Below are positions 1,033 to 62,790 of a stretch of 64,000 nt of DNA, in pieces. The DNA comes from a virus. Lineage: Duplodnaviria; Caudoviricetes. Made by a program: the position numbers and the translations under genes. Below the pieces are notes generated by a model. The model did no database searches and was not told where the DNA came from. It worked only from the letters and a program-made list of their open reading frames with translations. The DNA is taken from IMG/VR virus record IMGVR_UViG_3300042975_000096. The stretch is one strand, 5' to 3'. Numbering within the stretch: position 1 is the stretch's first letter; each line of letters starts with the position of its first letter.

Positions 1033-2727
1033 TTATTTCAATCCTTTTTTGAATTTAGCCAAATTAAACTTACTAATATCAACTATTCTATTCAAAAATT
1101 GATTTGACAACCATTTTTTGTTATACTTTACGGATTTCATAAATGCATTATCTAAAATATACGTTACCGCCCAATCTTTATCATTTCTAGTGCTTCTGCC
1201 ACATTCCTGAACCAAATTACGCATCATTTTGCAAGTATACCAACTCTGATTGTTTTTCATTTTCCGTTTTACACGTTCATCTGCCATAGAAATATATGGC
1301 AATTTAACAATAATTTGAAAACGACTTAAATCATCATGCAAATCTACACCTGCCATTAATGACGGGGAAACTAAAACTGTTGGATTTGGAGAATTAGCAT
1401 GGAACTTCATTAACGATTCATTGGAAACTTCCATTTCTTTATATACCAATCTATCAGAATTAATACTTTCAACAATTTTCTCCATAATGCCATATGTTGA
1501 AGTATGAATAATACCCTTCTCATTTGGATGTAAAGCTAAAATTCTTTTAATTTCATCAATTACATATGGCATAGTACCATTAATGTTTTTATAACTCATT
1601 GAACCAATAGGGTCATATACAATTGGAGAATTATAAGACGGGAATGTGCTGTCTTTTGTAATGAAACACGTATTTTCAGGAGTCAATCCCATATCCTTAC
1701 AAAATCCAGGTTTGTCCAAAATTGTTGCAGACATAAACACAACCTGATTCATTGCGAATTTATCAATTAACTGGTGAAATAAATTCTCAACGCTAATTGG
1801 CTTTACTGATAACTTCCCATCTTTTGCTGAAATAATCCAATTTTCTTTTTCTGAAGAATTTAAAAAGTTATCTATTTTTTCGCTCAATATTGTTAATTCA
1901 TTAATGTGCTGAGACAATTTATTTACGTCAGTTTCTTCCAAATCACTAAGTTCTTCTGCCGTCAAGTTACTTCTGTCTCCATGTTTTATTGATGCAATTG
2001 TTTTTTGAAAGAATTCGATTTTATTCTTAATTATTGTGGCAATTAATTTTATCCAATCTTCATTTTCCTTTAGCCCATCAACACGTGGTTTTTTATTGTA
2101 TCTCAAATAAACATTGAAATCCAATCCCTTATTCAATTCATATCTTTTATCAAGATAATCTTTTGATAATGTAAAACCTGCACTATTAATCAATTGGTCT
2201 TCTAACATGTGGCATTCATCAACAACAATAACCCGTCTTTTAGGAAATGGTTTTGCTTTTACAGACAATGGTTTTGTAGCACGTAAGAAATATGAATATG
2301 AAGTAACATACATTTCTGCTTTTTCTGCACTTTTCTTTGCATTGACATATGGGCAGATACCCTGTTCAACGCAATCCATCCATATACTTCTTTCATATTT
2401 GCATTCACCATTAGAACAGCGCATACCCTCATCAACAGCACATTCATAATTTGCAGCGCCTTTAACGACCTTAACACTCATGTTATAAAAATCTTTTTCA
2501 TATTGGTCTTGCAGTTGTTTCGTGGCAGTTAGCAAATAGCTATTTCCTGCACGTTTAGAGATTGCTTTAGCGATGGCAGATTTACCTATGCCTGTGCCAG
2601 CTTCTATGACGATATAACGGTACTTTTTATCTGATGCATATATTTTATCCAACGACTTCAAAATGTCTGCCTGTGGCGCTCTCACGCTCTTATATGGGAA
2701 ATAGTTTTCAAATGTATTTTCGCTCAT
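1033..2727 (-). CDS. dinG: DinG/Rad3 (XPD)-family SF2 helicase
   Basis: Q motif RAPQ, Walker A EAGTGIGKS, Fe-S cysteines (C..C..C..CPY), DECH, SATI, QECGRSTR motif VI. Confidence 0.9.
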   Translation of the reverse strand: MSENTFENYFPYKSVRAPQADILKSLDKIYASDKKYRYIVIEAGTGIGKSAIAKAISKRAGNSYLLTATKQLQDQYEKDFYNMSVKVVKGAANYECAVDEGMRCSNGECKYERSIWMDCVEQGICPYVNAKKSAEKAEMYVTSYSYFLRATKPLSVKAKPFPKRRVIVVDECHMLEDQLINSAGFTLSKDYLDKRYELNKGLDFNVYLRYNKKPRVDGLKENEDWIKLIATIIKNKIEFFQKTIASIKHGDRSNLTAEELSDLEETDVNKLSQHINELTILSEKIDNFLNSSEKENWIISAKDGKLSVKPISVENLFHQLIDKFAMNQVVFMSATILDKPGFCKDMGLTPENTCFITKDSTFPSYNSPIVYDPIGSMSYKNINGTMPYVIDEIKRILALHPNEKGIIHTSTYGIMEKIVESINSDRLVYKEMEVSNESLMKFHANSPNPTVLVSPSLMAGVDLHDDLSRFQIIVKLPYISMADERVKRKMKNNQSWYTCKMMRNLVQECGRSTRNDKDWAVTYILDNAFMKSVKYNKKWLSNQFLNRIVDISKFNLAKFKKGLK

Positions 2728-2759
2728 AATTAAACCCCTTCTTCTTTTTTGTTAATCAT

Positions 2760-2788
2760 ATAATATCACATTTTATGTTGAATGTCAA
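2760..2788 (-). promoter_or_regulatory. Sigma70-type promoter for the helicase
   Basis: TTGACA-17nt-TATTAT with TG extension on minus strand. Confidence 0.65.
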
Positions 2789-2796
2789 TATAATTT

Positions 2797-2833
2797 AAAA
2801 AGTATGAGATTAAATAAATCTTAATCCCATACT
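2797..2833 (-). terminator. Intrinsic terminator after dUTPase
   Basis: AGTATGAGATTAA/TTAATCCCATACT inverted repeat with T-run on minus strand. Confidence 0.65.
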
Positions 2834-2838
2834 CAATA

Positions 2839-3627
2839 TCAATAACCATATTCTTGTCTCAAAATATTCTCAATATTTTTATGAATATATATATCTTTTA
2901 TTTCATTCACATTCATAGTTAAAATGCATAAATTAATAAATTCATGAAATACTTCTGCATAAGCAAGATATAATTTATCAAAATCAATAAAATCATTTGG
3001 TTTTTTCCAATGTTTCCATGATATTTGTTGTCTCACAGAAGCACACGCATCAGACAATCTACAACTCGCCTTCAGAATAGTAATGTCTTTATTAATGTCA
3101 TCCTTAGTATATAAATACTCATCAATTGACTCTTTTTGTCTATTATATGCAACATCAATCAAATCTTCTTTTTCATTTAATGAAACATTATATTTTTTAT
3201 CATAAGCAAATTGTATATCATGTGTGTTTGCGCCACCAACAATAAACAAATCTAACATAAAATGCAAAATATCGATTACTTCTTTTTTTAACTCAATATC
3301 AATTGAATTATTTTTATCATTTTTTGAATAAAGCACTAGATGTTCTCTAACTTCTCTTATTTCATCTTCAACACAAATAAGATATTTATCTACCCATTTA
3401 TCCACTTCTTCTTTTGTTGGGTTATCTACTTTCCTTATTCTGCTTGCAAAAGACCGTTGCATTTGCATTAACAACTCCCATGCAGTTAAAGATATATCAA
3501 AATTATTTTCTTTCAAAACCCGTTCAACAATTTTATCATTTTTTGCATCAACATATGCTTTATACTTTGCACAATCACAATGTAGGCTTTCGCATTGCAT
3601 TTCTAAATATGGACAATTATTATTCAA
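2839..3627 (-). CDS. All-alpha (dimeric) dUTPase/dCTPase, T4 gp56-like, internally duplicated
   Basis: EDEIREVRE, KKEVIDILHF, WKHWKK and C-terminal KNIENILRQEYGY motifs. Confidence 0.75.
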   Translation of the reverse strand: MNNNCPYLEMQCESLHCDCAKYKAYVDAKNDKIVERVLKENNFDISLTAWELLMQMQRSFASRIRKVDNPTKEEVDKWVDKYLICVEDEIREVREHLVLYSKNDKNNSIDIELKKEVIDILHFMLDLFIVGGANTHDIQFAYDKKYNVSLNEKEDLIDVAYNRQKESIDEYLYTKDDINKDITILKASCRLSDACASVRQQISWKHWKKPNDFIDFDKLYLAYAEVFHEFINLCILTMNVNEIKDIYIHKNIENILRQEYGY

Positions 3628-3662
3628 AAAATCACATCCAACACTCTTATTTTTGTATTATA

Positions 3663-4043
3663 TTATTTCTCAATATTATTATTTTGGCTTCTCATTGGAG
3701 CTTGTTGTCCCATACCATTAGATTGATTTAATCCAAATGCACTTTGAATAAACCCACCAACCTTACTTTTTCCAACAGAACCACCCATAACTGCTCCTGC
3801 AACATTAATTCCTGTTACGCAATATGCAAATGTTTCAATAATATCAGCCCATGTTTTACTAATATCTGTATTTGCAATATACATATATGCTCCGAACAAT
3901 AATGATGCAACTAAACAAATCATTAATAATGATACTCTAGTTTCGTCAACTGACATAACATTATGAAAAAAATTATGCGTTGGTTGTTGTTCTTGCTGTG
4001 TTGGCTCTACATTATTTTGATTTTCTTCCATTTTATCCTTCAC
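3663..4043 (-). CDS. Two-TM membrane protein (holin-like); true start probably 4031 (MEENQ)
   Basis: Two hydrophobic segments (VSLLMICLVASLLFGAYMYI; FAYCVTGINVAGAVMG), polar termini. Confidence 0.5.
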   Translation of the reverse strand: MKDKMEENQNNVEPTQQEQQPTHNFFHNVMSVDETRVSLLMICLVASLLFGAYMYIANTDISKTWADIIETFAYCVTGINVAGAVMGGSVGKSKVGGFIQSAFGLNQSNGMGQQAPMRSQNNNIEK

Positions 4044-4545
4044 CTGTTTCCTTTGTTGTTTGACACGTTATATTTTCGCAAGACATGTTTTGGCATGTTA
4101 ATTCTTGACAATATTTTGATTGACAAGAATATTGCTGACAAAACGTACTTTGACATTTTTGACATGATTCACAATAACATTCTGATTCACACGTTTCACA
4201 TACTTGACATGTTTGACATGTTTGACACGCTTCACAATGTTGACATGTTTGACATGGTATTTCTTGACATGTAACTAATTGGCACGTCATGACTTGACAC
4301 GTTGTTATCTGACATCCTTGACATCGTTGACAACTTTGACAAGCCTGACAAGATTCCACCTGACATTTTACACTCTGACAACAATTAGAAGGTGAACAAT
4401 TACAATTATTAACATTCCCCTTATATAAATCCAGTCTATCTAATGCCGTTTTTAGCTCTTGTAATTTGGTTTTATTTACAACGCTTCTTATTGGACTCCA
4501 ATCTGTTTTTTTTATTTTGTTATTCTTTGCCACAACCATCTTCAC
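4033..4545 (-). CDS. Cys/Gln-rich repeat protein, probable radical SAM substrate (RiPP-precursor-like)
   Basis: About 31 Cys, mostly as CQ/CE units with period 3 or 5, after a Cys-free ~47 aa leader; overlaps the rSAM gene. Confidence 0.75.
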   Translation of the reverse strand: MKMVVAKNNKIKKTDWSPIRSVVNKTKLQELKTALDRLDLYKGNVNNCNCSPSNCCQSVKCQVESCQACQSCQRCQGCQITTCQVMTCQLVTCQEIPCQTCQHCEACQTCQTCQVCETCESECYCESCQKCQSTFCQQYSCQSKYCQELTCQNMSCENITCQTTKETGEG

Positions 4546-5617
4546 TTCCCATATCCGTAATTAACTCTAATATTGGATAATTCATTACGTTAATCATTGT
4601 GCAATAAAATTCTTCTCTTGCCTTTGTTCCAACCAGAGGGCATCCATTCTTGCACAAAATTTGAACAGGACATTTATCGCAAATAGAAGAATTTTCTTTA
4701 ACTTTATCCATATCACAAACATTCTTCATCACATTAAATGAGCTATCCATAATAGTGCCAACCTTATCATCAGTATTATGGCACTTATACAAATTCCCTT
4801 GCAAATCTACATTAAGCACCTCATATCCATTTCCACATCTATCTCTTGTTGGTTTAATGTTATTTGTACGTAAAGCAAATCTAACTTGATTTATTTTTTG
4901 CTCTATATACGCCTTTTTAACTACTGATATTTCTGATTTTCCCTGAAAAAAGTTTAAATATTCATCACACAATTCATGTATCTGTGTATATACTTTATCA
5001 TAATCAAAAGATTTTAAATCAATATTTTCCAAATTAACATCTAATAAATCATCAACATTAAAACTAATTGTATGTCCATTGTAATTTTCAACATAATCTT
5101 TATTTAATTTTTCACAATCTTCCAAATAATCCTTAATATAATTATAAGAAGACATTACACCCGATACAGAAAACCAATTTAAAGAAAATATATTTTCTTT
5201 ATTATCTTCAAAAACATTATATCCTCTAGTTTTAATTGAGTTTCTTCCATCCCAACTAATACAAACGCCATTGAAATGCTCGTTAACAAACTTTACTTTT
5301 TCTTCATCAAATAATTTACCATTCGTAATCATTGTAAAATATAAGTTATCAGGTTTTCCCATTTCCTCTATTTTTAGCACAATTTCTTTTACTTTATCCC
5401 AAAACACTAATGGTTCTCCACCATAAAACTGTACATGTAACATTGAGTTTTGAGATTTTGCAGTTTCAATAATAAAATTATACAACATTGGATTTACTTG
5501 TCTTTCCATTGCAACATTTACCACATCATGTTGCAAACAATATTTACATTGCAAATTACATTCATGCCCTAACATGATAAATATTGTTGATATATTTCTA
5601 GATAAAAAATTGCTCAT
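4520..5617 (-). CDS. Radical SAM/SPASM domain peptide maturase
   Basis: CNLQCKYC, FYGGEPL, TNG, SWDG; SPASM RCGNG..GNLYKC..CDKC..CKNGCP..YC. Confidence 0.92.
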   Translation of the reverse strand: MSNFLSRNISTIFIMLGHECNLQCKYCLQHDVVNVAMERQVNPMLYNFIIETAKSQNSMLHVQFYGGEPLVFWDKVKEIVLKIEEMGKPDNLYFTMITNGKLFDEEKVKFVNEHFNGVCISWDGRNSIKTRGYNVFEDNKENIFSLNWFSVSGVMSSYNYIKDYLEDCEKLNKDYVENYNGHTISFNVDDLLDVNLENIDLKSFDYDKVYTQIHELCDEYLNFFQGKSEISVVKKAYIEQKINQVRFALRTNNIKPTRDRCGNGYEVLNVDLQGNLYKCHNTDDKVGTIMDSSFNVMKNVCDMDKVKENSSICDKCPVQILCKNGCPLVGTKAREEFYCTMINVMNYPILELITDMGSEDGCGKE

Positions 5618-6820
5618 TTATTTATTTCCTTTCAATACAGACATTATCATTCCAATATTTGTCCAATCCATGAATTTAATTGCTTCTTCTACAGTCATAA
5701 CATGCAAATGAATACGTTCAGTATCTTCAACTACTCCGTGTACTTCATTATCTTTTTTAACAGAATCAATTTCTTCTTGTGTTAATTCCACACTAAACAA
5801 TGCAATTCTGTGCGAACATAATGTAGCTGCTGATTGTTTTATTGTTTCATAATTGAATCTATCAGAATCCAATACTAATCCTGTTTCTTCCTCTAATTCT
5901 TTTGATGCTGTCTGTAATCTATCATCATCTTCATTAAGTGAAGAACCACCTGGTAATTCAAATACCATTTCGGCTTCATTAACCACAGGAGTTCTAAACT
6001 CTTCACATACAATTAACTCCGATTTCATAATGTCTTCTTCATTTTTGCTATATGCAAATATATAACTCATATCTGTTCTTGATATAACAAATTCATTATC
6101 TTTAACTCTATCTTCCTTAACCCCATCATATGACTCTTTTACATAAACATCTGGCTTATATACTGCCAAAAATAATTTTTTTGCTTTTGGCATATAAAAC
6201 TCATATAAAAACTCAAAATTTTCTAATTTGTTTCCAATTTCTTTTTGTGGTTGATACCAATTTTGAAATTGATTTGATTTAAAAATATGTTGTGGAACTA
6301 ACACTTCTGTGTTCTCTCTATAAATTCCATCGCCAATAAAATCCAATGCATCATTTAATAAAGCTTTTAAATTATTATGCCATTCATATTTTCCATCTGA
6401 AATCTTTTTTATATAATCATTCTTTACCGCACTATCTGGTCCACCAATAACCAACTTATCAGTATTAAAAAACAAACCAAATTCAATATTTGTTGTTAGA
6501 GCTAACATTTCATTATCAGGTCTAAATTCTCGTGGAATCCAAAATACGATTGCATCTGCCATTTTTAAACATTTGTGCTCCCACTCAATTTGTTCATCTT
6601 TATCATCAGGATTAAACGGTTCATCATCTCTATTTTCAGGTACAAATACAACACCATCGTAATCGAGTTCTCTTAATATTGTTAATGCTTCTTCACGCCA
6701 GCCTAACTCTTTTTTTTCGCGCGGTGTCGGACCAGCTAAAAAAATAGATTTTGTTAAAGATTGTGGTATATCTTCTCTTGAATGTATTTCAATCATATTA
6801 TTTTTTCCTAACCTTTTCAT
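5618..6820 (-). CDS. Nucleoside 2-deoxyribosyltransferase-like domain fused to NUDIX hydrolase
   Basis: IFLAGPTPR..WR..QIEWE..ADAIVFW..TTNIEFG (NDT-like); ELPGGS..TASKELEEETGL Nudix box; start set at MKRLGK (AAGGAGA SD). Confidence 0.8.
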   Translation of the reverse strand: MKRLGKNNMIEIHSREDIPQSLTKSIFLAGPTPREKKELGWREEALTILRELDYDGVVFVPENRDDEPFNPDDKDEQIEWEHKCLKMADAIVFWIPREFRPDNEMLALTTNIEFGLFFNTDKLVIGGPDSAVKNDYIKKISDGKYEWHNNLKALLNDALDFIGDGIYRENTEVLVPQHIFKSNQFQNWYQPQKEIGNKLENFEFLYEFYMPKAKKLFLAVYKPDVYVKESYDGVKEDRVKDNEFVISRTDMSYIFAYSKNEEDIMKSELIVCEEFRTPVVNEAEMVFELPGGSSLNEDDDRLQTASKELEEETGLVLDSDRFNYETIKQSAATLCSHRIALFSVELTQEEIDSVKKDNEVHGVVEDTERIHLHVMTVEEAIKFMDWTNIGMIMSVLKGNK

Positions 6821-6849
6821 ATTATTACATTCTCCTTTTTTCACATAAA

Positions 6850-6869
6850 TCTTTTCTATAAATAGAATA
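6850..6869 (-). promoter_or_regulatory. Conserved motif TATTCTAT-N3-TAGAAAAGA, candidate phage-specific promoter
   Basis: Near-identical copies at 6887-6906(+) and 62771-62790(-), each just upstream of an operon start. Confidence 0.5.
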
Positions 6870-6886
6870 ACGAATACAAGAATCTA

Positions 6887-6906
6887 TATTCTATCTTTAG
6901 AAAAGA
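6887..6906 (+). promoter_or_regulatory. Divergent copy of the same motif
   Basis: TATTCTATCTTTAGAAAAGA, 14 nt before ATG 6921. Confidence 0.5.
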
Positions 6907-6920
6907 AAGTTGGTGAAATA

Positions 6921-7376
6921 ATGATTGATTTAGTAAAATTAGCTGATAAAACAAATAGAGTAATGAATAATATTTTTCTAGAATCAGGAATAAATAACAT
7001 TTCATTATACGTATATAAACATCATGATTTTCCTTTTTTAAAAACAATATGTGACACATTTGAAGAATCTATGAATAAAAATCAAACAACAAAAAAAATC
7101 AAATCGTTGAACTATCTAAAAACATATGATAAAAAATCAACCCTCGTTGTTTTTTGTTTATTATTAAACAACAACAACATAAATGATATAAACTATCAAT
7201 TCAACGATTTGTCCAATTTAGTAAAAACAAATTACAAAGTCGATTGTTTACAAATTTTTATTAATTGCCAATTCAGTGAATATCATGAATATGTCAATGC
7301 AATAAATAATCAAATTAAATCATATATTACAAAAAAATATGAAAACAAAATAAACAATGAGGATGGATTACAGTGA
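6921..7376 (+). CDS. Hypothetical protein
   Basis: 151 aa ORF with GGTG SD; weak similarity to 8164..8634. Confidence 0.65.
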   Translation: MIDLVKLADKTNRVMNNIFLESGINNISLYVYKHHDFPFLKTICDTFEESMNKNQTTKKIKSLNYLKTYDKKSTLVVFCLLLNNNNINDINYQFNDLSNLVKTNYKVDCLQIFINCQFSEYHEYVNAINNQIKSYITKKYENKINNEDGLQ

Positions 7377-7594
7377 ATACATTAACTTTATTATTATTAG
7401 GCTTAGTGTTAATTTATGCAGTTGGAGAAATTGCAAAATTTTTATTTTATACACTTATTGTCCTGCTAGTTGCATATTGCATATTAGTATCATTTAATGG
7501 CAATATAACACTACATCAAATATTTACATACATAAAAGAACTTAATATTTATACCATAAAACAAAAAATCGTTAATTTTTTTAGAGGTGAATAA
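7373..7594 (+). CDS. Small membrane protein
   Basis: Hydrophobic N-terminal ~40 aa; GTGA overlap with upstream stop. Confidence 0.6.
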   Translation: MNTLTLLLLGLVLIYAVGEIAKFLFYTLIVLLVAYCILVSFNGNITLHQIFTYIKELNIYTIKQKIVNFFRGE

Positions 7595-8092: not shown

Positions 8093-8104
8093 TTTAAAAA
8101 TGTA

Positions 8105-8133
8105 TTGACAAATATCCCTTTTTATGATATAAT
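8105..8133 (+). promoter_or_regulatory. Consensus sigma70 promoter
   Basis: TTGACA-17nt-TATAAT with TG extension. Confidence 0.8.
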
Positions 8134-8163
8134 TCACTTATATATTAGAAAGGGTGTTTTTTT

Positions 8164-8649: not shown

Positions 8650-9512
8650 ACATTTAACAACAAATCATTTTTATTAAATCCCAACTTATCAAATAATTGT
8701 TGCTCAGTAATACATATTCGTTGTTCAAATGAATCATCTATATTAAATAACCTTAAATATTCTGTTAGCCCATCATCATGTGTTTTGTTTAATGGCGAAT
8801 AATACACTTTTTTACCTAATGCAGAAAACTCAAAAATCATCTTTCCTATATTTTCAGAAAATACTGAATTATCTTCCGTAACACTTCTCCATCGATTGTA
8901 ATGTAATTCATTTAGCATCATATTGTTTAATAACATATTCCCATTTTTTGTCCTTTTACAACTTGAAATTGTTCCATTAACAACATCCATCTTTTTTAAA
9001 TGATTAAACCTTTCTTTGGAAAATTTATGATAATACACAAAATATTTTTCCCAATCAAAAAAAGTCTGATTCATTTTATTTCCCAACATTATAGTATTCG
9101 GAAGTCCTTTAACATAATCAATAAATTTACTATTTTGATTATAAAAATCATAAATTATTCTACCAGCATCTAATAATATTAACTTATCATATTTAAATGG
9201 TATTGAATCAATAAATCTAAAAACGCCAAATGACATAATTAAATTGTTAAAGTTATTATTTTTTATAAATTCATTTAATGTATGGATTTCTACATATATT
9301 GGATTTAATAATTTAATAGGAACGCTTTTGTTTAACGTCTGTATATATTCCACATTTTGTTTCACCATTGAGTCTGACGCATCAAACAATATGTAACAAT
9401 AAATATTATTCATATATTTGTTTAAGTTGTAAAACGAATCAATCAATGATGTAGTTGTCCCATCTAAAAACGGATAATATATAACTATCGCATTCTTTTT
9501 TATAAACTCCAT
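8631..9512 (-). CDS. Putative glycosyltransferase-like protein
   Basis: ENIGKMIFEFSALGKKV resembles the GT-B E-x-FG-x4-E-x3-G-x2-V motif; overlaps the sugar dehydrogenase gene. Confidence 0.4.
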   Translation of the reverse strand: MEFIKKNAIVIYYPFLDGTTTSLIDSFYNLNKYMNNIYCYILFDASDSMVKQNVEYIQTLNKSVPIKLLNPIYVEIHTLNEFIKNNNFNNLIMSFGVFRFIDSIPFKYDKLILLDAGRIIYDFYNQNSKFIDYVKGLPNTIMLGNKMNQTFFDWEKYFVYYHKFSKERFNHLKKMDVVNGTISSCKRTKNGNMLLNNMMLNELHYNRWRSVTEDNSVFSENIGKMIFEFSALGKKVYYSPLNKTHDDGLTEYLRLFNIDDSFEQRICITEQQLFDKLGFNKNDLLLNVLKKGN

Positions 9513-10759
9513 ACCTTTATTCCTTTTTTTTCAAAATATTTTCTATCAAACAAACCTTTTATATCAAATAGTGTCTTATCTTTTTTTAAGGCATTGGCAA
9601 TATATTTTTTATGTTTTAAAAATGAATCATGCTTAACAACAACAACTATACTATCCACATTTTTAGGAAGTTGATTAACAATATTGATTGAATTTCCATA
9701 TAAAGTTTTTAATTCTTCTTTATTACACACATCATCAAAAACAATAACCTTGTATCCAACTGTTACTAAAAAGTCGTACAATTCAACTGCTTTTGAGTTT
9801 CGTACATCATTACAATTTTCTTTAAATGTGATTCCCATCAATAATATTGTTTCATTTTTATTTGGCAATTCTTTTTCTATTTGTTCTCCAATAAAACCAA
9901 TAACATATTCATTAATATTACGTGACTGTAAAATAATATCATAAATATCCAATCCCTTTATTATTGGTTTTAAATAGTACGGGTCAACGCCAATACAATG
10001 ACCGCCAACCAATCCTGGTTGATATTCCGCATTAATAAAATTAAATTTAGAACTAGCTACATTTATCACTTCCGTTGTATCAATATTATAATAATGACAT
10101 AATCTAGCGAACTCATTCATCAAAGCAATATTTACATCTCTTTTTACATTCTCCATTATTTTTGACATCTCCGCAACCTCTAATGAAGAACATGCTCTAA
10201 CTTTATTACCTAAAATTATTCCATACAATTGTTTTAACTCTTTACAATAAAATGCATTACTGCCTGAAACTAATTTTGTGATTTCTTTTATTGTTTTCCC
10301 ACCTTTACCTGGTTGTAATCGTTCTGGGGAAAAACCAACTCCAAAATCATCATTCAATTTCAATTTTGATTCTTTTTCTAAGATTGGAACACATAAATTT
10401 CTAGTAGTTCCTGGGCAAACAGTTGACTCAAATATAACTATATTCTTTTTTTTCAACACTTTACCTACTGATTTACAAGCAGAAACTACATATATATAAT
10501 CTGGATTATTTCCAGCATCAACTGGAGTTGGTACACACACTATATATACATTGCAATCTTCTGGCATTTCAGATACGAATCTTATATTTTTAAGTAATTC
10601 AGAATCAACACTTTCTGTTTCATCAATACCATTTTTATATTTTTCCATTTTTTCTTCATTAACGTCAAACCCATACACAGTTACATATTTACCAAATTCA
10701 GAAGCCAATTGAATTCCAACATATCCTAATCCAACAATACAAATCTTAATATTATTCAT
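9500..10759 (-). CDS. UDP-N-acetylhexosamine/nucleotide-sugar dehydrogenase (WecC/TviB/WbpO-like)
   Basis: GLGYVG, CVPTP, ESTVCPG, SPER, PGLVGGHCIGVDPYYL, GITFKENCNDVRNSK. Confidence 0.92.
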   Translation of the reverse strand: MNNIKICIVGLGYVGIQLASEFGKYVTVYGFDVNEEKMEKYKNGIDETESVDSELLKNIRFVSEMPEDCNVYIVCVPTPVDAGNNPDYIYVVSACKSVGKVLKKKNIVIFESTVCPGTTRNLCVPILEKESKLKLNDDFGVGFSPERLQPGKGGKTIKEITKLVSGSNAFYCKELKQLYGIILGNKVRACSSLEVAEMSKIMENVKRDVNIALMNEFARLCHYYNIDTTEVINVASSKFNFINAEYQPGLVGGHCIGVDPYYLKPIIKGLDIYDIILQSRNINEYVIGFIGEQIEKELPNKNETILLMGITFKENCNDVRNSKAVELYDFLVTVGYKVIVFDDVCNKEELKTLYGNSINIVNQLPKNVDSIVVVVKHDSFLKHKKYIANALKKDKTLFDIKGLFDRKYFEKKGIKVWSL

Positions 10760-10789
10760 TATCTCAACCCTTTCCAATCATATTATAAC

Positions 10790-11223: not shown

Positions 11224-12063
11224 TTACTTAATCGTAATCTTTGCAACGGACATGCCATTAACTACAGACATACCGATTTCTTCATAAACAACCCAACCAA
11301 CGCGAAGCTCTTCAGGTTTATCAGCAGGAATAACCTGGATATCCTGACGAATTGGCATTACACCAACGAACTCTGGGTCAGCAAGTACATAAACCGTATT
11401 GAGCGGAACTTTCTTAGAAATAAGGATTTCAGCCGTCCAAATATGTCCGAAAGAACCAGTCTGCAATACTTCATGCTGCGTTACCGGGTCAAACTCATTC
11501 TGACCCCATTTACGAATGTCAGCGAAAGCCTGTGCGTTCATGACAATCTTCGTAACTGCGAGGTCATGCTTCTCAACTTCACGGAAAGCCGTAGCAAGAG
11601 CATCACGAGTAAGTCCACCAGCACTAACAGTCGCAGGGTTAACAGACGTGGAAGCAGCTTCCAACAGACTGAATACAGTCTCATCCTCTGTAGCCATGAT
11701 GTCTGACTTAGCACGTTGCTGTGCACGGTCAATGATGTTAAATCTACGCTCTTTAATCTGAGAGAAACGAACCTGCGGATATGCGACTACTTCAAAAGTC
11801 GGAACCTGGATTCTTTCACCCTCAACCAACTGGTCTGGTGCCTGTCCACGCTTAGAAACTACGAAAGCCTTAGCATCAACATCACGGTCATAAACCGGAA
11901 GAGCACCCTGTGGCAACGGGTCAACTACGAGCAACTTACGTCCAATACCCTGATAATCAAGGGACATACGAATTGGGTTAGCCATAGCACTTGCAAGTGC
12001 TGCACGACCCTCATTTGTTTCAAGAGCATTGGAGATTAAATATTCTTTTTCTTCTTGTGTCAT
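11224..12063 (-). CDS. Major capsid protein (HK97 fold)
   Basis: GRAALASAMANPIR..DYQGIGRKLL..PLPQGALPVYDRD..; C-terminal GWVVYEEIGMSVVN; higher-GC optimised codons, GGAGG SD, strong terminator, downstream of protease and portal. Confidence 0.85.
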   Translation of the reverse strand: MTQEEKEYLISNALETNEGRAALASAMANPIRMSLDYQGIGRKLLVVDPLPQGALPVYDRDVDAKAFVVSKRGQAPDQLVEGERIQVPTFEVVAYPQVRFSQIKERRFNIIDRAQQRAKSDIMATEDETVFSLLEAASTSVNPATVSAGGLTRDALATAFREVEKHDLAVTKIVMNAQAFADIRKWGQNEFDPVTQHEVLQTGSFGHIWTAEILISKKVPLNTVYVLADPEFVGVMPIRQDIQVIPADKPEELRVGWVVYEEIGMSVVNGMSVAKITIK

Positions 12064-12882: not shown

Positions 12883-13953
12883 TTAAAAATTTTTATTATA
12901 TTCTAAAATACTTTCATTTAATGCATTTATATCCATACTATTATATATGGGTAAACTTATTGAATGATGTGCAATACGATTAGCTACACTATTACTTGTA
13001 TTCAAATATAACTTATTATCCCAAATTGTATTTGAATACAATGAATCTGTTTCAAAATAATTTTTCAATAATTGAATAGTCTCGTTTTCACCCTCTACCT
13101 GAATTCTACACCATGCAGAGATTGAATTAGATTCTACTTCCTGAAAAGCAACACCTTTTAACTGTTTATAACAATCCGCTATTTCATTTCTTTTTTTCAA
13201 AATTGTATCAATAGTTCGTGCTCTTTCCAGCATCATTATTACATGAAGCGAGTCAACTTCACCATTAGTTCCATCAACAATACAATTATTATCACCATTT
13301 GAACCATGATTCAATAATGAGCATGATTTTTTATATAAATCCTCATCATTTGTAAATAAAGCTCCACCTTCACCAAAGCCACCAAACGGTTTAGTCGGAT
13401 AAAAAGAAACAGCAGACATGTCACAACCAACATTACATGTCTTTTTACCATGATATTCTGCCGTAAATGATTGGCAAGCGTCTTCTAAAACAGGAATGTT
13501 ATATTTTTTTCCTAAATCTAAAATAGAATCATAATCACAAGGATTCCCAAAAATATCTACAGGCAAAATACACTTAATAGATTTATTGGTTTTTAATTCT
13601 TCTTCTAATTTATTCACATCAATGTTCCATGTATTTTTATCTATATCTATAATTACAGGTTTTGCCCCAACAAGTCGTATTGCTGATAAAGTAGCAATAA
13701 AAGTATATGCCGTTGTTGCTACTAAGTCCCCTTCTTTTATACCCAAACACTTTAATGCGACTGCCAATGCCTGTGTTCCTGATTTTGTTAATATACAATA
13801 TTTACTTCCTGTAAAATTTGACAAAATGTTTTGCAGTCTATCCTTATAATCAGAACTCATAAATCTTCCTTTTAAAACTGCATTATCTAATTCTTTAAAC
13901 GCATTTCTTTTTATTGTTAAATATTCAAATTTATTATCAAAGTATTTAATCAT
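12883..13953 (-). CDS. DegT/DnrJ/EryC1/StrS sugar aminotransferase (WbpE-like)
   Basis: SGTQAL, TFIAT, EDACQS, SFYPTKP (PLP Lys), GEGGA; start set at MIKYFD. Confidence 0.92.
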   Translation of the reverse strand: MIKYFDNKFEYLTIKRNAFKELDNAVLKGRFMSSDYKDRLQNILSNFTGSKYCILTKSGTQALAVALKCLGIKEGDLVATTAYTFIATLSAIRLVGAKPVIIDIDKNTWNIDVNKLEEELKTNKSIKCILPVDIFGNPCDYDSILDLGKKYNIPVLEDACQSFTAEYHGKKTCNVGCDMSAVSFYPTKPFGGFGEGGALFTNDEDLYKKSCSLLNHGSNGDNNCIVDGTNGEVDSLHVIMMLERARTIDTILKKRNEIADCYKQLKGVAFQEVESNSISAWCRIQVEGENETIQLLKNYFETDSLYSNTIWDNKLYLNTSNSVANRIAHHSISLPIYNSMDINALNESILEYNKNF

Positions 13954-13975
13954 TATAATTTCTACACCTTTCATC

Positions 13976-14002
13976 AAAAAATACCCAATTAAGGGTATTT
14001 TT
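13976..14002. terminator. Intrinsic terminator
   Basis: AAAAAATACCC/GGGTATTTTT. Confidence 0.6.
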
Positions 14003-14740
14003 TCATCTACTTCCCATAGACCATCCCAAATCACTAAATTTATCTTTTAATGATTTGCCAAATGATTTTGATTGTTGTACTACAGGTTTTGTAAGTCCTT
14101 GTAAATTACTCATTGGATTTTTACGATTTGCAACTTTCTTTGGTTTTGAAGATGCATTCAAAGAAGCCTTTAATGCATCCATTCCTTCTGATAAATCACC
14201 ATTAACTGATTCTGAGGTTAAATTTCCCATTTGAGTTTCCATAATTCTATTTGCTTTTATATCAGCTAACGAACGATGTTCACTAAAATCTGATGAAGAA
14301 ATATTTGTAGCCATCGATGGCACTTCTTGTGAAAAATCTCCAATTACTGGACCACTTTTCTTTATTTTTCGTAATGCCTTTTCAGCTTCGGTCAAATTTT
14401 CTTCTTCTTCACTTAATGATGGGTCTGCATTATTAACATCAATCCAAACTTCCGCTTCAACTTCTTTTGCATATTTTTCAAATTCTTCATCTGATAATGT
14501 TTGCACTTCTAACAATTTCATTTCCCTGTCAGACTCATCAATTAAATTTTTCTTAATTGCCATATCAACAATTTTATCAAATTTAGTTGCAAATTTACTT
14601 TCAACCTCAATTTTATTTGACTGTTGTTCTACTGGTTTTTTGATTTCCTCTGTCTTTTTATCAAATAAAACATTATTCAACATCGCAAAAGATATTCTAT
14701 AAAATTTTGGTTCTGGTTTTACAATTTTCAAATTAAGCAA
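14003..14740 (-). CDS. Putative scaffolding protein
   Basis: Charged, helical, between protease and capsid genes; positional inference. Confidence 0.4.
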   Translation of the reverse strand: MLNLKIVKPEPKFYRISFAMLNNVLFDKKTEEIKKPVEQQSNKIEVESKFATKFDKIVDMAIKKNLIDESDREMKLLEVQTLSDEEFEKYAKEVEAEVWIDVNNADPSLSEEEENLTEAEKALRKIKKSGPVIGDFSQEVPSMATNISSSDFSEHRSLADIKANRIMETQMGNLTSESVNGDLSEGMDALKASLNASSKPKKVANRKNPMSNLQGLTKPVVQQSKSFGKSLKDKFSDLGWSMGSR

Positions 14741-35174: not shown

Positions 35175-37259
35175 CTATATATTCTTGCATATGACGGTTT
35201 TCGGCATGTGTCCACGTCTACCACTTAATGCTGCAAAATTAGCCAATACATCCGCATCACAACAGTCATCATGATAACCTGCCGGTGCTTCAATTTTTTT
35301 ATTAACAGAAAAGCCAACTGTGAATTCCAAATCAGCCCATTCAGAAATCATTCTATGATAAAAACTTACATTATTTTTACCAGCACCTGGACCTTCTGAA
35401 CGCTCAAAATTCTCTTTTGTCATATATTTGAATTTATCATTTTCTAATTCTTGTCTCCATTTTGCATACATAATATTTTTCATATTCATACCACTATTAG
35501 TAAACCTATCGCGAGAATTAAAAATAATACCTTCCATATTCTGTATCCCATATTCCTCTTGCAATGTTTGAACTACTGCTGCTCCGCATCCTGTATAATC
35601 CGCAAATATTCTTCTCGTTTCAAATATTGGATGTGGGCCACCAAATAAATGGGAAATACAATACATTTGCTCTGGATAACTAGTATCCTTAAACTCCTTA
35701 CAAAATACTTTTTGTTTTACGCCATCTCTAGTTATTCTTAAAACAGTAATGTGCGTACTATCTCCCTCTGGATTACTTCCTGCAAAGTCGATTCCTGCCA
35801 CATAATTTTCACCAATTTTACCATGTTCCAACCATTCAAATTCGCCATCTGTTAATTTTTCGATGTGCTTACTATTCAAATATTTACCTGCACCATCTAT
35901 GAATTCCAACATATACTGAGTTCTAAAATCTTCTATATCCAAGTTTCCGTCTGTCCATACTTCAGGATTATTCGGGAACATTTCTTGTTTTAATGATTTT
36001 GGCATTGCCTGTTCTACAATGAACTTTGAATATGGTCTAACAATACCTGTATTAGGGTCAGGTAAATAAATTGCACCTAATGCCCATGATTGCGCACATT
36101 GTGTCCAATCTCTTTTTACAACTGTCCATTTTTCATGTGCTTTTCCCTCTACCGCATCATAAAAATGGTTTCTCGTTTTTGGCGTTCCTATTTTGATAAG
36201 CTTCGCATTTGTAGCACCGCCCATTGGAACTATACGCTCTGACCATGTATAATCAGATACCTTCTGTGCCTCATCTAAGCATATAATATCAAATGTCAAA
36301 CCTTCGATGTTTGACTGGTCACTTGCTGATACTGCTGCAACATAAGAACCATTATCCAACATAACTTTATCTTTTGTCAATTTCACTATTTTATGATTTA
36401 ACTTATCTTCATTCATTTGACAAAATGTACTTAATCGTCCAATACTAACCTCTGCCTGTTGTTGTCTAGGTGTAAAAATACCAACTCGCATTTGCGGAAA
36501 ATTATCTATTAAATATCCACTAAAACAAGCGATGCTTTCTGTATTATGCGTTACTGTGTAATCGCCTAATAAAAATAAATGGTCTTTACTATCAATAGTA
36601 AATCCATAATAGTTTCCTATTCCTTTATCTATCAATTTTATTTCATAAGATTCTCTTTTTTGAAAATCTCTAGACATTCTATATCCATATAATTTTTTAT
36701 TTGATTTAATATAATCTTCAACATTTATATTAATAACATTATTATTCTCATCTAATAATGATAGTATGTGGGATTTATTTACAGTATAACTTCCATTAAG
36801 ACTGTTTACTTCATACATACGTTCTGTTCCACGACCTAAAGAAGTAACAAGCACTCCTTCACCTTTTGGAGACATTACATAATTTCCAACCTCAACATCC
36901 TCGACATTTTTTGTTTTGCCATTTGCCATAAGAATTTTTGTTCCTTTTGCAAAACATTTTCCTGCCTGTCTAGACATCATTCCTGCAACCTGTTTCAATT
37001 TTGGATGACATACCGCACGTATTAATGCTGTTTGATTTTCATGTAATAACCTTCTGCTTTCAGGCAAATGTGCTCTTAAAACATTTTCACAATACTCTAT
37101 TGGGTCTAACCTGTTCAAAAACTGATGAAACATAAAATCTTGTAATGGTTGTCCATTTATCATATTTTCCTGTGACGTTGCAACAATATCATTTTTAATT
37201 AAATCGACATTGCTTTTTATACCTGCTGTTATTGCTTTTGTTAAGTCTTGTGAACTCAT
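35175..37259 (-). CDS. terL: Terminase large subunit containing a mini-intein
   Basis: Walker A MSRQAGK/T split by intein, Walker B ICLDEAQ, coupling motif IGTP, nuclease GIDFAG and HDDCCD. Confidence 0.92.
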   Translation of the reverse strand: MSSQDLTKAITAGIKSNVDLIKNDIVATSQENMINGQPLQDFMFHQFLNRLDPIEYCENVLRAHLPESRRLLHENQTALIRAVCHPKLKQVAGMMSRQAGKCFAKGTKILMANGKTKNVEDVEVGNYVMSPKGEGVLVTSLGRGTERMYEVNSLNGSYTVNKSHILSLLDENNNVININVEDYIKSNKKLYGYRMSRDFQKRESYEIKLIDKGIGNYYGFTIDSKDHLFLLGDYTVTHNTESIACFSGYLIDNFPQMRVGIFTPRQQQAEVSIGRLSTFCQMNEDKLNHKIVKLTKDKVMLDNGSYVAAVSASDQSNIEGLTFDIICLDEAQKVSDYTWSERIVPMGGATNAKLIKIGTPKTRNHFYDAVEGKAHEKWTVVKRDWTQCAQSWALGAIYLPDPNTGIVRPYSKFIVEQAMPKSLKQEMFPNNPEVWTDGNLDIEDFRTQYMLEFIDGAGKYLNSKHIEKLTDGEFEWLEHGKIGENYVAGIDFAGSNPEGDSTHITVLRITRDGVKQKVFCKEFKDTSYPEQMYCISHLFGGPHPIFETRRIFADYTGCGAAVVQTLQEEYGIQNMEGIIFNSRDRFTNSGMNMKNIMYAKWRQELENDKFKYMTKENFERSEGPGAGKNNVSFYHRMISEWADLEFTVGFSVNKKIEAPAGYHDDCCDADVLANFAALSGRRGHMPKTVICKNI
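36543..36956 (-). mobile_element. Mini-intein (138 aa, no endonuclease) in terminase P-loop
   Basis: Begins CFAKGTKILMANG, block B YTVNKSH, ends YYGF..TVTHN followed by Thr+1. Confidence 0.9.
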
Positions 37260-43196: not shown

Positions 43197-43369
43197 TATA
43201 CATCTTCCCTTTTATTTTTTTCGTTTCTATATATTTTAAATCGATTTCGATTTTTTCATCTAATAATAATATAAAATATGCTTACAAAAAAATAAGAACT
43301 ATATCTCTTTTCTTTCCTTATAAAAATACTGTTACATAAATGATATTTCCCTATAAAAAGTCCTTTTAT

Positions 43370-43458
43370 TATTTTACACATTTTTATAGTATAATTACGT
43401 GCCATTTTACACACTTTTATATATAATTACGTGATAATTTACACATTTTCTATATATA
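43370..43458 (+). repeat. Three ~32-bp direct repeats TTTACACA..TATA(ATTACGTG)
   Basis: Read directly; intergenic. Confidence 0.7.
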
Positions 43459-43488
43459 AAAAACGCCTACTAATAAAAAGTAGGCGTT
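43458..43488 (-). terminator. Intrinsic terminator
   Basis: AACGCCTACT/AGTAGGCGTT with T-run on minus strand. Confidence 0.7.
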
Positions 43489-43499
43489 AATATCTTCAT

Positions 43500-43973: not shown

Positions 43974-44056
43974 TTATTTCCTTTTTTTATCTTGATTTAT
44001 ATATTATATGACTGAACTAAAAAATGGTTAATAGATGGATTTTCGCATGATATTAT

Positions 44057-44325
44057 AAAAAGTGGAAGCCTATATGGAATTATATAAGAGAAAAAGTGGA
44101 ATACTTATATGGTTATATTAAAAAAGTGGAAGCTAATCGTAATATATTAAACTATATGGATGGATTTTGTTTTTAAAAAGCATATAGACTATATAAGGTT
44201 ATATAGTCTATATTAGTAAAAGTTGAAACACATATACTCTATAATAGAAAAAGTGGAATATATAAGTTTATATGCTTATAAAAAAGTGGACGGTAATTGT
44301 AATATATTAAAAAAGTGGACGGTAA
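44057..44325 (+). repeat. Iteron-like array: six AAAAAGTGGA plus one variant around a perfect 15-bp inverted repeat
   Basis: Copies at 44057, 44091, 44121, (44218), 44248, 44281, 44310; palindrome 44182-44213. Confidence 0.8.
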
Positions 44326-44331
44326 AATGCG

Positions 44332-44614: not shown

Positions 44615-45489
44615 TTATTTATCCTCCTGTTTTGATAAAGCAATTTTTGACACAACTTTTTTAATAATGCCAATATATGCCATCTTAAGTTTGGTGTCGG
44701 ATTCAATAGCATCCATTTTATTCAATTTATTAATAGACGTTTTAGAATAACCCATTGAAGCACAACGCTTTTTCAAATTCGTAAGCCGTGCATTTAATCG
44801 CACATTAGTTACAATTTCAAGTTCATGATATGTTTTTGCGCGTAAATCCTGATAAGAAATCCCATTGATTTTAACGCAACGATTAATCAATGTATTAATT
44901 TCTTGTCTCCAATTTTTATCACCAAGAACTAATACGTCTGATACTGCATTGAATTTCTTTTCAATGTTATCGTTTTTCTGTAGCAATTCTTCGTTATCCC
45001 TCTGTAACTTCGCCACGCTCATTTGGAGAGCTTTTTGACCATGTTCCATACTGACCATTGCCTGCGATATTTTAAGGCACAGTTCGACCGGTGAGAGAGC
45101 CACACTGTATTGTCCTGTTTTACGAATCTGTGGCAAAACAATACTAGTTACCCAATGTTTGAAATCTTTGGCATTAGGAAGCTTACTTCCAAAAATCAAA
45201 CTATACATACCAGACTCGTTGATGAATACTGGATATTGCTTGCGACCGAGGGTGTCAATGACAAAAAACTGCAGACATATCAATGGTTTGCGATGGGTGA
45301 CTGTTTTGTTCACCCCATCATTTTATCATCGTCATCAACATGCATTCTAATAGCTTTCTGTGGATTTTCGTATCCCAATGCAGTAGCTACATCTTTTCCG
45401 ACGAACCATGGATTTCCTTCATCATCAATAATGACACGGACATTACCAAAAACCTCATTTGTAAAAACCTTAATCATTTCATTATCCAC
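44615..45489 (-). CDS. BRO-N domain (antirepressor-like) protein, broken by apparent homopolymer indel(s) near 45265-45316
   Basis: FGNVRV..PWFVGKDVATALGY..KAIRMHVD in one frame; GRKQ..INESGMYSLIFGSKLPNAKDFKHWVT in the next. Confidence 0.85.
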
Positions 45490-45538
45490 ATTAAAACCTC
45501 TTCCTATTAATAATAGTGAATTTTTATTTATAGTTTAC

Positions 45539-45567
45539 ATTATATCATCATGGAAAATATTTGTCAA
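45539..45567 (-). promoter_or_regulatory. Consensus sigma70 promoter for BRO gene
   Basis: TTGACA-17nt-TATAAT with TG extension. Confidence 0.8.
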
Positions 45568-45584
45568 TAAGTTTATAACAAATA

Positions 45585-45625
45585 AAAAATGAAACCTGTT
45601 TTTAATTAAAAAACAGTTTCATTTT
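45585..45625. terminator. Intrinsic terminator
   Basis: AAAATGAAAC(C)TGTTTTT/AAAAACAGTTTCATTTT. Confidence 0.65.
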
Positions 45626-45627
45626 AT

Positions 45628-45762
45628 CAGTTTTTCTGTTGTCCCTCAACTTTGCCATTCTATATACATGGCTTCAAATTTAGCGTTTTTCTGTTGCGCT
45701 CCAACTACATTGCCCCATATGTGCAATTTCAATTTGAGATTTTATGTGGTGCTGATACACCA
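45628..45762 (-). ncRNA. Candidate structured RNA of ~2.5 repeats of 55 nt
   Basis: Repeated two-hairpin units with different but still pairing stems and a conserved CAACAGAAAAAC. Confidence 0.45.
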
Positions 45763-45769
45763 TATTATT

Positions 45770-46352
45770 TTAATTACTCTTAATAATTTTTAATATATGG
45801 TCAACGCAATCATGAATAGATTCATTATATATACGATTATCTTCTATTCCTAATTTTGCGAAGCTTTCTGGTGAAAAAGTCTTTACTATCTGTGACAAAT
45901 CGTCTACACATTTCCACAAAATCACGATTACCTGATTCTTCTCGTGCAAATGCTCTTAACAATCTTGATTCTTCATTTACACATATATGTAATACCATAA
46001 CTTTTTTTGGATATTCTTCCATCAACTTCTTTGCTCCATCCAAAGTATTAATCATGATATATACATTATCAGATTTTATATCGATTTGATTATCAATACA
46101 TGTATAATAAATCCATTTTCCATGAACTGTATTATAAGTTCTGCTTTCGATTACTTTACCTGCATTTTTTAATTGATTAAATCTTTTTTTTGTTGTAAAG
46201 TAATATTCTTTTCCGTTTTTTTCTCCAATACGCATTGGTCTGGTAGTATAAGTGGTTACAGGTACAAGCTTATTAGTACCTCCAATTAATGATTTGAATA
46301 TTGTATCTTTACCTGCACAAGATTCTCCCACTAAACATATGATTTTCGCCAT
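45770..46352 (-). CDS. gmk: Guanylate kinase-like protein (C-terminus shifted by an apparent extra T near 45876)
   Basis: GESCAGKDT, TTYTTRPMRIGEKNGKEYYF; removing one T gives DFSPESFAKLGI..KSN*; track ORF 45837..46352. Confidence 0.8.
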
Positions 46353-53496: not shown

Positions 53497-53535
53497 AAAA
53501 GGAAGAAAACCTATATAAATTTTCTTCCTTTTTTT
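53497..53535. terminator. Intrinsic terminator
   Basis: AAAAGGAAGAAAA/TTTTCTTCCTTTT. Confidence 0.6.
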
Positions 53536-62745: not shown

Positions 62746-62770
62746 AATTCACACCATCCTTTACGTTAAA

Positions 62771-62790
62771 TCTTTTCTAATAATAGAATA
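62771..62790 (-). promoter_or_regulatory. Third copy of TATTCTAT-N3-TAGAAAAGA, upstream of tail operon
   Basis: TATTCTATTATTAGAAAAGA on minus strand. Confidence 0.5.

Follow-up and report, generated by a model that had tools for sequence, protein, structure and literature searches.

Introduction

Several radical S-adenosylmethionine (rSAM) enzymes that carry a SPASM domain modify cysteine-rich polypeptides. In the PapB/PapA (freyrasin) pair the substrate has six CXXXD motifs, and each of their Cys is cross-linked to a nearby side chain (PMC12373016). The SCIFF system CteB/CteA (PDB 5WGG, TIGR03974) combines a maturase bearing an N-terminal RRE domain with peptides of about 45 residues and six Cys, while the CXXX-repeat systems (TIGR04114, TIGR04117, TIGR04115; PF27846) and the Cys-every-fifth system of CefB (NF038107) each pair a protein of fixed Cys period with a dedicated rSAM/SPASM enzyme. 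QhpD places several Cys-to-Asp/Glu thioethers in QhpC, which is retained as a structural subunit and not released as a peptide, and anSME (PDB 4K36), an enzyme of about 370 residues without RRE, acts on whole proteins. Here we describe a cassette of three genes in the 64,000-nucleotide stretch of viral DNA (Duplodnaviria; Caudoviricetes) held as IMG/VR record IMGVR_UViG_3300042975_000096, the whole of which we call the window. The cassette encodes an rSAM/SPASM maturase of 365 residues, a 170-residue protein with a core of Cys-Gln/Glu repeats, and a small membrane protein of 126 residues.

Our analyses favour a dedicated maturase whose 170-residue substrate becomes a thioether ladder and is probably retained as a structural or adhesive part of the phage, a reading to which we assign a probability of about 0.6. 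Its components differ in strength. It is highly probable that the maturase acts on the adjoining protein as its substrate, and thioether-type cross-linking is likely by analogy with the nearest enzymes; that the product is retained in association with the virion has slightly less than an even chance in this phage, and a better one in the prophage versions described below. The pair would work much as a ranthipeptide or sactipeptide maturation pair does. We found no description of this phage system in the literature (a cyanophage paper mentioning an rSAM maturase proved irrelevant to it), and it is apparently an unpublished system, real and conserved, in which an RRE-less rSAM/SPASM maturase is joined to a large Cys-Gln repeat substrate.

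A compact maturase without an RRE domain

The enzyme belongs to the radical SAM superfamily: it carries a CX3CX2C motif (C20, C24 and C27) and scores 40.2 bits against Pfam Radical_SAM PF04055, above the gathering score of 29.5. Fer4_12 and phrog_1802 are also matched. Towards the C-terminus, seven Cys are arranged as C261-x12-G-x4-C279, C313-x2-C316-x5-C322-x3-C326 and C339, which is the SPASM pattern CX9-15GX4C ... CX2CX5CX3C ... C. All ten are invariant in an alignment of 36 homologues, and a prophage orthologue exceeds the TIGR04085 cut-off (34.6 bits against 27). The domain plan equals that of anSME, which has eight auxiliary-cluster Cys against the seven conserved here. In CteB and PapB one iron site of an auxiliary cluster is open for a substrate Cys (PMC12373016), and seven conserved auxiliary Cys in the window maturase are consistent with one such open site.

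The closest solved structure by sequence is CteB (E 3.9e-20 with the single sequence, 3.9e-32 with a profile). The alignment covers CteB residues 97-417 only, and within it the SPASM Cys correspond one for one. The profile alignment starts at CteB residue 96 and at residue 107 of 8VPO; the maturase begins at the rSAM core, and the first 96 residues of CteB, which form the leader-binding RRE (RiPP recognition element) typical of ranthipeptide maturases of the PapB and CteB type, have no counterpart.

The nearest maturase families, PapB, SCIFF/CteB and QhpD, are all Cys-thioether formers. The best NCBIfam model, that of PapB (NF047865), is matched over its full length at 112.1 bits against a cut-off of 340 (105.5 bits for the prophage orthologue), followed by the SCIFF maturase TIGR03974 (84.9 against 425) and QhpD (81.9 against 453); the anSME family gives 54 bits against 349. 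The comparison with rSAM family models that the initial annotation had proposed thus puts thioether formers nearest; the cut-off of every curated family was missed, and none of the NCBIfam target models was matched by the Cys-rich protein at E 0.1 or better.

We therefore rejected membership of the PapB family on its score, and of SCIFF on score, substrate size and Cys count. Membership of the CXXX-repeat system was rejected because an orthologous maturase (G001) reached only 27.6 bits against the TIGR04115 cut-off of 350, control genomes scoring similarly, and membership of the CefB family because prophage orthologue L096 reached 44.3 bits against 600; both TIGR04115 and CefB lie outside the best 25 families for the window maturase. 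The substrates differ as well. CXXX-repeat proteins have a period of 4, whereas the window protein has periods of 3 and 5 in alternating blocks. The PapB/PapA pair is alike in uniting an rSAM and SPASM enzyme with a substrate of many regularly spaced Cys, but its acceptor is an Asp at +4, where the phage proteins have Gln/Glu directly after Cys; moreover, the present system is phage-borne, lacks an RRE and a protease or exporter gene, and has substrates of 170-297 residues with 26-31 Cys. QhpC, a small subunit of an enzyme, has three or four cross-links but neither repeats nor a phage context, and the C/S-x-P/A-x-R sulfatase motif of anSME substrates is absent from substrates of the window type.

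A protein of 31 cysteines with alternating periods

The Cys-rich open reading frame (ORF) occupies 4033-4545 on the minus strand. Its product contains exactly 31 Cys, in agreement with the initial estimate of about 31, the first being residue 48; residues 1-47, up to a V-x-N-C-x-C junction, lack Cys and form what we call the leader. The successive Cys spacings are 2, 5, 1, 5 and 5, then four of 3, four of 5, seven of 3, then 4, 2, 3 and 3, and finally six of 5, so that the alternation of period-3 and period-5 blocks noticed earlier withstands a direct count. Gln follows 22 of the Cys and Glu five (27 of 31). Cys makes up 25% of the core, from which Asp is absent; the Cys-X3-Asp repeat of PapA is accordingly missing, although a C-x3-Q spacing does arise inside the period-3 blocks. 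Since Gln/Glu is near-invariant after each Cys, and since period-3 Cys with a Gln four residues on reproduces the C-x3-acceptor spacing of PapB, these residues are the obvious candidate acceptors; this we infer, as we do the thioether chemistry and the virion location.

An AlphaFold2 model built on an alignment of 20 relatives gives the N-terminal region a pLDDT of about 80, with a confident helix at residues 25-40 that agrees with the helical leader first proposed, and gives no fold for the core (pLDDT about 30). A folded leader helix before a disordered core is what would be expected of a chain that needs modification to gain structure. Leader residues N8, T14, A34, L38, V45, N47 and C48 are invariant across the jumbo-phage and prophage relatives described below.

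DNA slippage as the origin of the repeats was considered and ruled out: repeats at the DNA level are weak (period 9, 76-86% matches) and orthologues keep position-specific choices of Gln or Glu after Cys, which together indicate a defined protein and not low complexity made by slippage. In Atlas the protein falls close to viral clusters, and in one of these 30% of the members carry PF27846 (score 0.83; a lead only).

With GTG starts, the maturase stop overlaps the start of the Cys-rich gene by 26 nucleotides, and the stop of the latter overlaps the membrane protein gene by 11; the initial annotation had noticed both overlaps. With the ATG starts used by other gene callers, the first overlap is 20 nucleotides and the second becomes a gap of one nucleotide.

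Co-inheritance of enzyme and repeat protein

A single-sequence scan of IMG/VR returned nothing, while a maturase profile gathered 156 loci from IMG/VR and from contigs of one genome per species, in which Cys-repeat ORFs were sought by a six-frame scan. An adjacent Cys-Gln (CQ) repeat ORF was present in 33 of the 37 loci that could be assessed at a maturase identity of 35% or more; the figure fell to 2 of 10 at 30-35% identity and to 1 of 93 below 30%. Adjacency of a CQ ORF thus tracks similarity of the enzyme, a sequence-level pattern that strongly supports an enzyme-substrate pairing. The suggestion of a maturase dedicated to the neighbouring Cys-periodic protein, which would have failed had homologues of the two genes not co-occurred, is strongly supported by their conserved adjacency in divergent phages and by the thioether-forming nature of the nearest families.

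The window is marked as phage by portal, large terminase and tail-fibre matches. Its large terminase (35175-37259, minus strand) shares 55% identity with gp1 from the 497-kb Bacillus phage G, and maturase orthologues lie on metagenomic contigs of 405 and 500 kb; on these grounds we assign the window, which has a G+C content of about 30%, to a phage-G-like jumbo phage. Its source is apparently gut metagenomes. Among cultured phages, tblastn with the maturase found only matches of 21-33% identity in unrelated phages, Bacillus phage G not among them, and tblastn with the Cys-rich protein found nothing; nor did a megablast search with the region as query, which covered 50,697 phage records.

Five jumbo-phage relatives (L002, L003, L004, L005 and L009) have maturases 45-66% identical to that of the window and a conserved gene order: NDT-like gene, rSAM, Cys-rich protein of 203-297 residues, membrane protein, dUTPase, helicase. 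The Cys-rich ORF, with 26-28 Cys, directly follows the maturase in four of the five and keeps the V-x-N-C-x-C junction and a C-E-N-I-x-C-Q end. The fifth, L005 (500-kb contig, 5241-7571), has the maturase, a membrane protein 61% identical to that of the window and an extra rSAM of 255 residues. A second rSAM also lies just upstream in L003 and in the IMG/VR record behind L009. By sequence search the sole close homologue of the window's Cys-rich protein is P0001, with the leader-core junction in common; its contig also holds a tail-fibre-like gene, a second Cys-rich ORF and an rSAM.

These distributions bear on two other explanations. The rSAM might serve nucleotide or DNA modification together with its NDT-like/NUDIX and dUTPase-like neighbours, leaving the Cys-rich ORF incidental. 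The make-up of the operon is indeed constant in the jumbo clade, and phage rSAM enzymes are reportedly known in DNA hypermodification, but the rSAM/CQ pair recurs in about 35 prophage loci without nucleotide-metabolism genes, and both the SPASM domain and the nearest families are those of peptide maturases. We regard this explanation as highly improbable. The second holds that the protein acts like a metallothionein or poly-ferredoxin, its C-x2-C and C-x4-C arrays chelating Zn, Cu or Fe or holding clusters, and that the rSAM either inserts or remodels such sites or is a mere neighbour. A core that is 25% Cys, with spacings typical of metal sites and predicted to be disordered without ligand, would suit this role. 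Strict co-inheritance with one rSAM/SPASM clade is nevertheless the pattern of an enzyme and its substrate, the position-conserved Gln/Glu after Cys would go unexplained, and the NCNCDC..DD tails of related prophage proteins resemble Asn/Asp acceptor motifs of known thioether systems (CXXXD in PapB), so that metal binding appears improbable.

Prophage cassettes and the origin of the leader

All CQ-positive loci from genomes belong to the Negativicutes (Acidaminococcus, Megasphaera, Succiniclasticum, Selenomonadaceae and Dialister). In these prophages the genes of two paralogous precursors come after that of the maturase: type A, of about 95-120 residues with a leader clearly homologous to that of the window protein, and type B, of about 120-145 residues with a longer N-terminal region. 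Both have tails of the form N/D-C-x-C ... D-D-G. The type A gene of L007 (7100-7387) and L008 (7100-7399) has been miscalled publicly in another frame, as a product of 93 or 138 residues, an example of how gene callers often overlook small Cys-repeat precursor genes or assign them a wrong frame.

In Megasphaera sueciensis the genes run from tape measure, Dit, a 414-residue Tal-like protein, proteins of 207 and 112 residues and a tail fibre to the first rSAM, whose start overlaps the tail-fibre stop; CQ-A, CQ-B, a 131-residue protein with a sub-threshold Hint match, a 296-residue protein, a second rSAM, a 274-residue protein and an amidase follow. A Dialister prophage has the same order and ends with holin and GH25 lysin genes, and in Megasphaera, Dialister and Acidaminococcus prophages alike the cassette lies between tape measure/Dit/Tal/tail-fibre genes and lysis genes. 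Such a slot also hosts cargo (moron) genes.

Most of these prophages also encode a Cys-tailed protein of 207-214 residues, in which a conserved terminal helix is followed by an N-C-N-C-D-C ... D-D tail. Among loci without CQ ORFs, the Cys-tailed protein directly precedes the maturase in L101, L104 and L106, and a Cys/Asp-rich ORF of about 200 residues does so in L034, L035 and L099. The predicted fold of the Cys-tailed protein (pLDDT 68.6) found nothing significant in the PDB; in a viral fold library its better matches were siphovirus proteins without a characterised role, and many entries with the labels YomR, virion structural protein or tail fibre matched more weakly. Neither the Cys-tailed protein, nor the precursors, nor the membrane protein has a Pfam, NCBIfam or PHROG family, even at E 1.

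The leader and junction were then used as a profile against 1.84 billion representatives, which yielded 210 proteins (cluster representatives), 58 of them at E 1e-10 or better, most of them small and starting with the leader. Large fibre proteins were also found, bearing three tandem copies of the leader motif at the C-terminus. In one siphovirus prophage such a protein (P0224) fills the receptor-binding slot: the tape measure, Dit and Tal genes come before it, the holin gene comes after it, and no rSAM gene is close by. Laminin_G_3 lectin-like proteins with leader and Cys repeats at the C-terminus adjoin rSAM genes, and in P0138 and P0152 leader and CQ repeats are fused to a C-terminal Hint/intein-like domain (sub-threshold in Pfam). 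The Hint-like domain also occurs in prophages as a separate small gene immediately after CQ-B (L096, 7813-8208; L007, 7780-8148), a hint that the repeat tract may undergo autoprocessing or ligation at its C-terminus. Judged by profile similarity, the leader is homologous to a C-terminal repeat of tail fibres. Its fusions across fibre, lectin-like and Hint-like proteins suggest that the constant element is the helix with its N-C-x-C cluster, which could be appended to various phage proteins, the CQ tract being an expansion of that element.

Three further observations concern individual loci. ThiF/E1-like genes lie alongside rSAM genes in some loci (L165, 4144-8137; L102, 1188-2045), and in L165 three consecutive rSAM genes lie downstream of a Laminin_G_3 and Cys-repeat protein. 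In L006 (Sporomusaceae bacterium), a locus without obvious phage genes, a 161-residue protein (4865-5350), about 650 nucleotides upstream of a maturase homologue, contains an N-C-D-C-N-C-D-C cluster with a long Gly-Asp repeat after it. Here the same junction bears a tail of another kind.

The initial annotation had offered a phage system resembling peptides synthesised on ribosomes and modified after translation (RiPPs), or a heavily cross-linked or metal-loaded virion fibre. In a classical RiPP, the leader would be cut off and the cross-linked core freed at lysis as a bacteriocin-like or signalling peptide. The layout of leader helix and disordered Cys-rich core, the proximity of the maturase to ranthipeptide and sactipeptide enzymes, and the cargo-prone slot by the lysis genes would all suit such a product. 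Yet no protease, peptidase-domain transporter or immunity gene lies beside the approximately 40 cassettes examined (host proteases are still conceivable), the substrates range from 95 to 297 residues, some with large Cys-free inserts, and in the prophages the rSAM and tail-fibre genes are coupled in translation. Further points in favour of a retained, cross-linked phage protein over a cleaved, secreted RiPP are the fibre-repeat homology of the leader, the lectin fusions and the Cys-tailed proteins of the tail module. Of the two original options it is thus the structural one that the evidence supports, and a classical RiPP seems rather unlikely.

Operon context in the jumbo phage

In the window, the cassette lies within an operon (Table 1) that opens with a Nuc_deoxyri_tr2-like and NUDIX-like fusion gene, syntenic in L002-L005, absent from prophage cassettes and probably outside the system, and that ends with a dUTPase_2/MazG-like gene and a terminator-like hairpin. 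The 24-nucleotide motif said to be common to this operon and that of the 62745 gene proved real, with exactly two copies in the window against 0.01 expected; from this sharing it may be a promoter with late timing. A strong sigma-70-like promoter lies downstream of the hairpin, ahead of the helicase gene, and around the operon sigma-70-type matches do not outnumber those in shuffled sequence. Promoters close to the consensus TTGACA-17-TATAAT type, and alike in their flanks, occur at 2760-2788 (minus strand), 8093-8163 (plus) and 45314-45836 (minus), before the helicase gene and two others; to judge from their sequence, they may be early promoters for the host polymerase, distinct from the 24-nucleotide motif.

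Table 1. Coordinates of the cassette and of associated features in the window
Feature	Coordinates	Strand	Basis or remark
Radical SAM/SPASM maturase, 365 residues, without N-terminal RRE domain	4520..5617	-	Pfam, NCBIfam, PHROG, CteB alignment
Cys-free N-terminal leader (residues 1-47) of the 170-residue protein, up to the V-x-N-C-x-C junction	4405..4545	-	AlphaFold2, conservation
Cys-Gln/Glu repeat core (residues 48-170) and stop codon	4033..4404	-	Cys counts, spacings
Small membrane protein, two hydrophobic helices, 126 residues	3663..4043	-	Conserved in jumbo-phage relatives; no family match
Nuc_deoxyri_tr2-like and NUDIX-like fusion, first operon gene, probably outside the system	5618..6844	-	Pfam
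dUTPase_2/MazG-like gene, last operon gene	2839..3627	-	Pfam, PHROG
Terminator-like hairpin closing the operon	2800..2834	-	Sole such site in 2500-7500; shuffled sequence gives about 0.9 sites
24-nucleotide motif upstream of the operon	6846..6869	-	Two copies in window
Second copy of the motif, upstream of a 713-residue gene (60604-62745)	62767..62790	-	Two copies in window
Tail-fibre-like gene, later in the 62745 operon	53535-55394
HK97-type capsid gene	11224-12063

The membrane protein lies directly downstream in all five jumbo-phage relatives (43-61% identity) and is absent from prophage versions. A holin was considered and is not supported, there being no Pfam, PHROG or NCBIfam match and no lysin nearby; in Atlas its resemblance to holin-type hairpins is weak (template-modelling (TM) score by query 0.41-0.44). 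The protein invites another explanation, namely a membrane-linked conflict system in which it and the matured repeat protein act at the host envelope, for example in superinfection exclusion or counter-defence. Such logic has a precedent in the HXS antiphage system (HxsA-D), where a repeat effector matured by rSAM enzymes remains a protein and blocks the entry of phage DNA (PMC13128918), and the membrane protein is the best conserved of the trio in the jumbo clade, being kept with the rSAM even in L005 without a nearby CQ ORF. On the other hand, prophage cassettes lack it, neither it nor the Cys-rich protein has a family match, the N-terminus of the latter is hydrophilic without a signal peptide, and the similarity to HxsA-D is that of the generic rSAM fold. 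HXS is conceptually the nearest recent work, but we consider a conflict system of this kind doubtful at best.

A UDP-glucose/GDP-mannose dehydrogenase gene (9500-10777) and a DegT-type aminotransferase gene (12883-14034), both on the minus strand, lie between the cassette and the capsid and portal genes; together they could form a module for sugar modification. The corresponding area of L005 contains a DegT gene as well as further rSAM genes. Elsewhere in the window, short direct repeats fill two long intergenic regions, with about seven copies of a CCACTTTTT-containing unit at 43974-44331 and three copies of a AAAATGTGTAAA..CACGTAATTATA unit at 43197-43499; they look like iterons or regulatory arrays.

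A proposed maturation mechanism

In the mechanism that we favour, that of a dedicated maturase and a thioether-laddered substrate, the N-terminal helix of the substrate and its V-x-N-C-x-C junction would dock on the maturase, and the disordered 31-Cys core would thread through the active site. As in PapB and CteB, each Cys thiolate would form a bond with a carbon of a residue close by, for which the recurring Gln/Glu is the most plausible candidate, and two hydrogens would be lost per link. A floppy chain would thereby become a covalently laddered, redox-insensitive rod. The product would probably be kept as protein, as a structural or adhesive part of the phage and, in prophages, as an accessory of the tail tip or fibre; in the jumbo phage it may work with the co-conserved small membrane protein.

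Several points weigh against this reading. Both chemistry and product are deduced from family resemblance only; the maturase falls far under every curated cut-off, that of PapB included, and lacks the RRE that PapB and CteB use for leader binding; and C-x2-C and C-x4-C arrays could bind metals instead. There is one clear exception to the pairing, L005, which has no CQ ORF within 6 kb despite its rSAM and membrane protein: either its substrate gene lies elsewhere or the enzyme has another target there. The prophage cassette occupies a slot prone to cargo genes, and the match of the Cys-tailed protein's predicted fold to structural proteins is weak (TM score about 0.3). In the window, finally, the cassette is flanked by nucleotide-metabolism genes and not by tail genes, with a membrane protein that the prophage versions lack, so that its role in the jumbo phage may differ from that in prophages.

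Significance

To our knowledge, the only other cases in which rSAM enzymes cross-link Cys-rich precursors are peptide natural products of bacteria and a small number of enzyme subunits. Here, phages carry the same class of enzyme, and it is linked with proteins from the tail-fibre repertoire. Should the product prove to be a part of the virion, it would represent enzyme-installed covalent reinforcement of a virus particle, which would be especially sensible in strict anaerobes, as disulfides are unreliable there. For enzymology, the maturase is compact and RRE-less, yet would be leader-dependent, and it may install dozens of links per chain with Gln/Glu acceptors, a property of possible use in peptide stapling. 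Three cultured hosts carry the prophage version (Megasphaera sueciensis TMW 2.2488, Acidaminococcus fermentans WCA-389-WT-5B and A. massiliensis Marseille-P2828), and make the hypothesis directly testable.

A broader proposal, which we advance tentatively and at clearly less than even odds, is that phages of anaerobes use their own rSAM to staple CQ tracts into multi-thioether ladders, with up to about 30 links per chain, that form or decorate part of the host-contact apparatus of the virion. If true, this would be a new form of virus-particle maturation and a redox-proof substitute for disulfides; it would also mean a new cross-link, from Cys to Gln/Glu at a fixed period, made by an RRE-less maturase with a docking helix borrowed from tail-fibre repeats.

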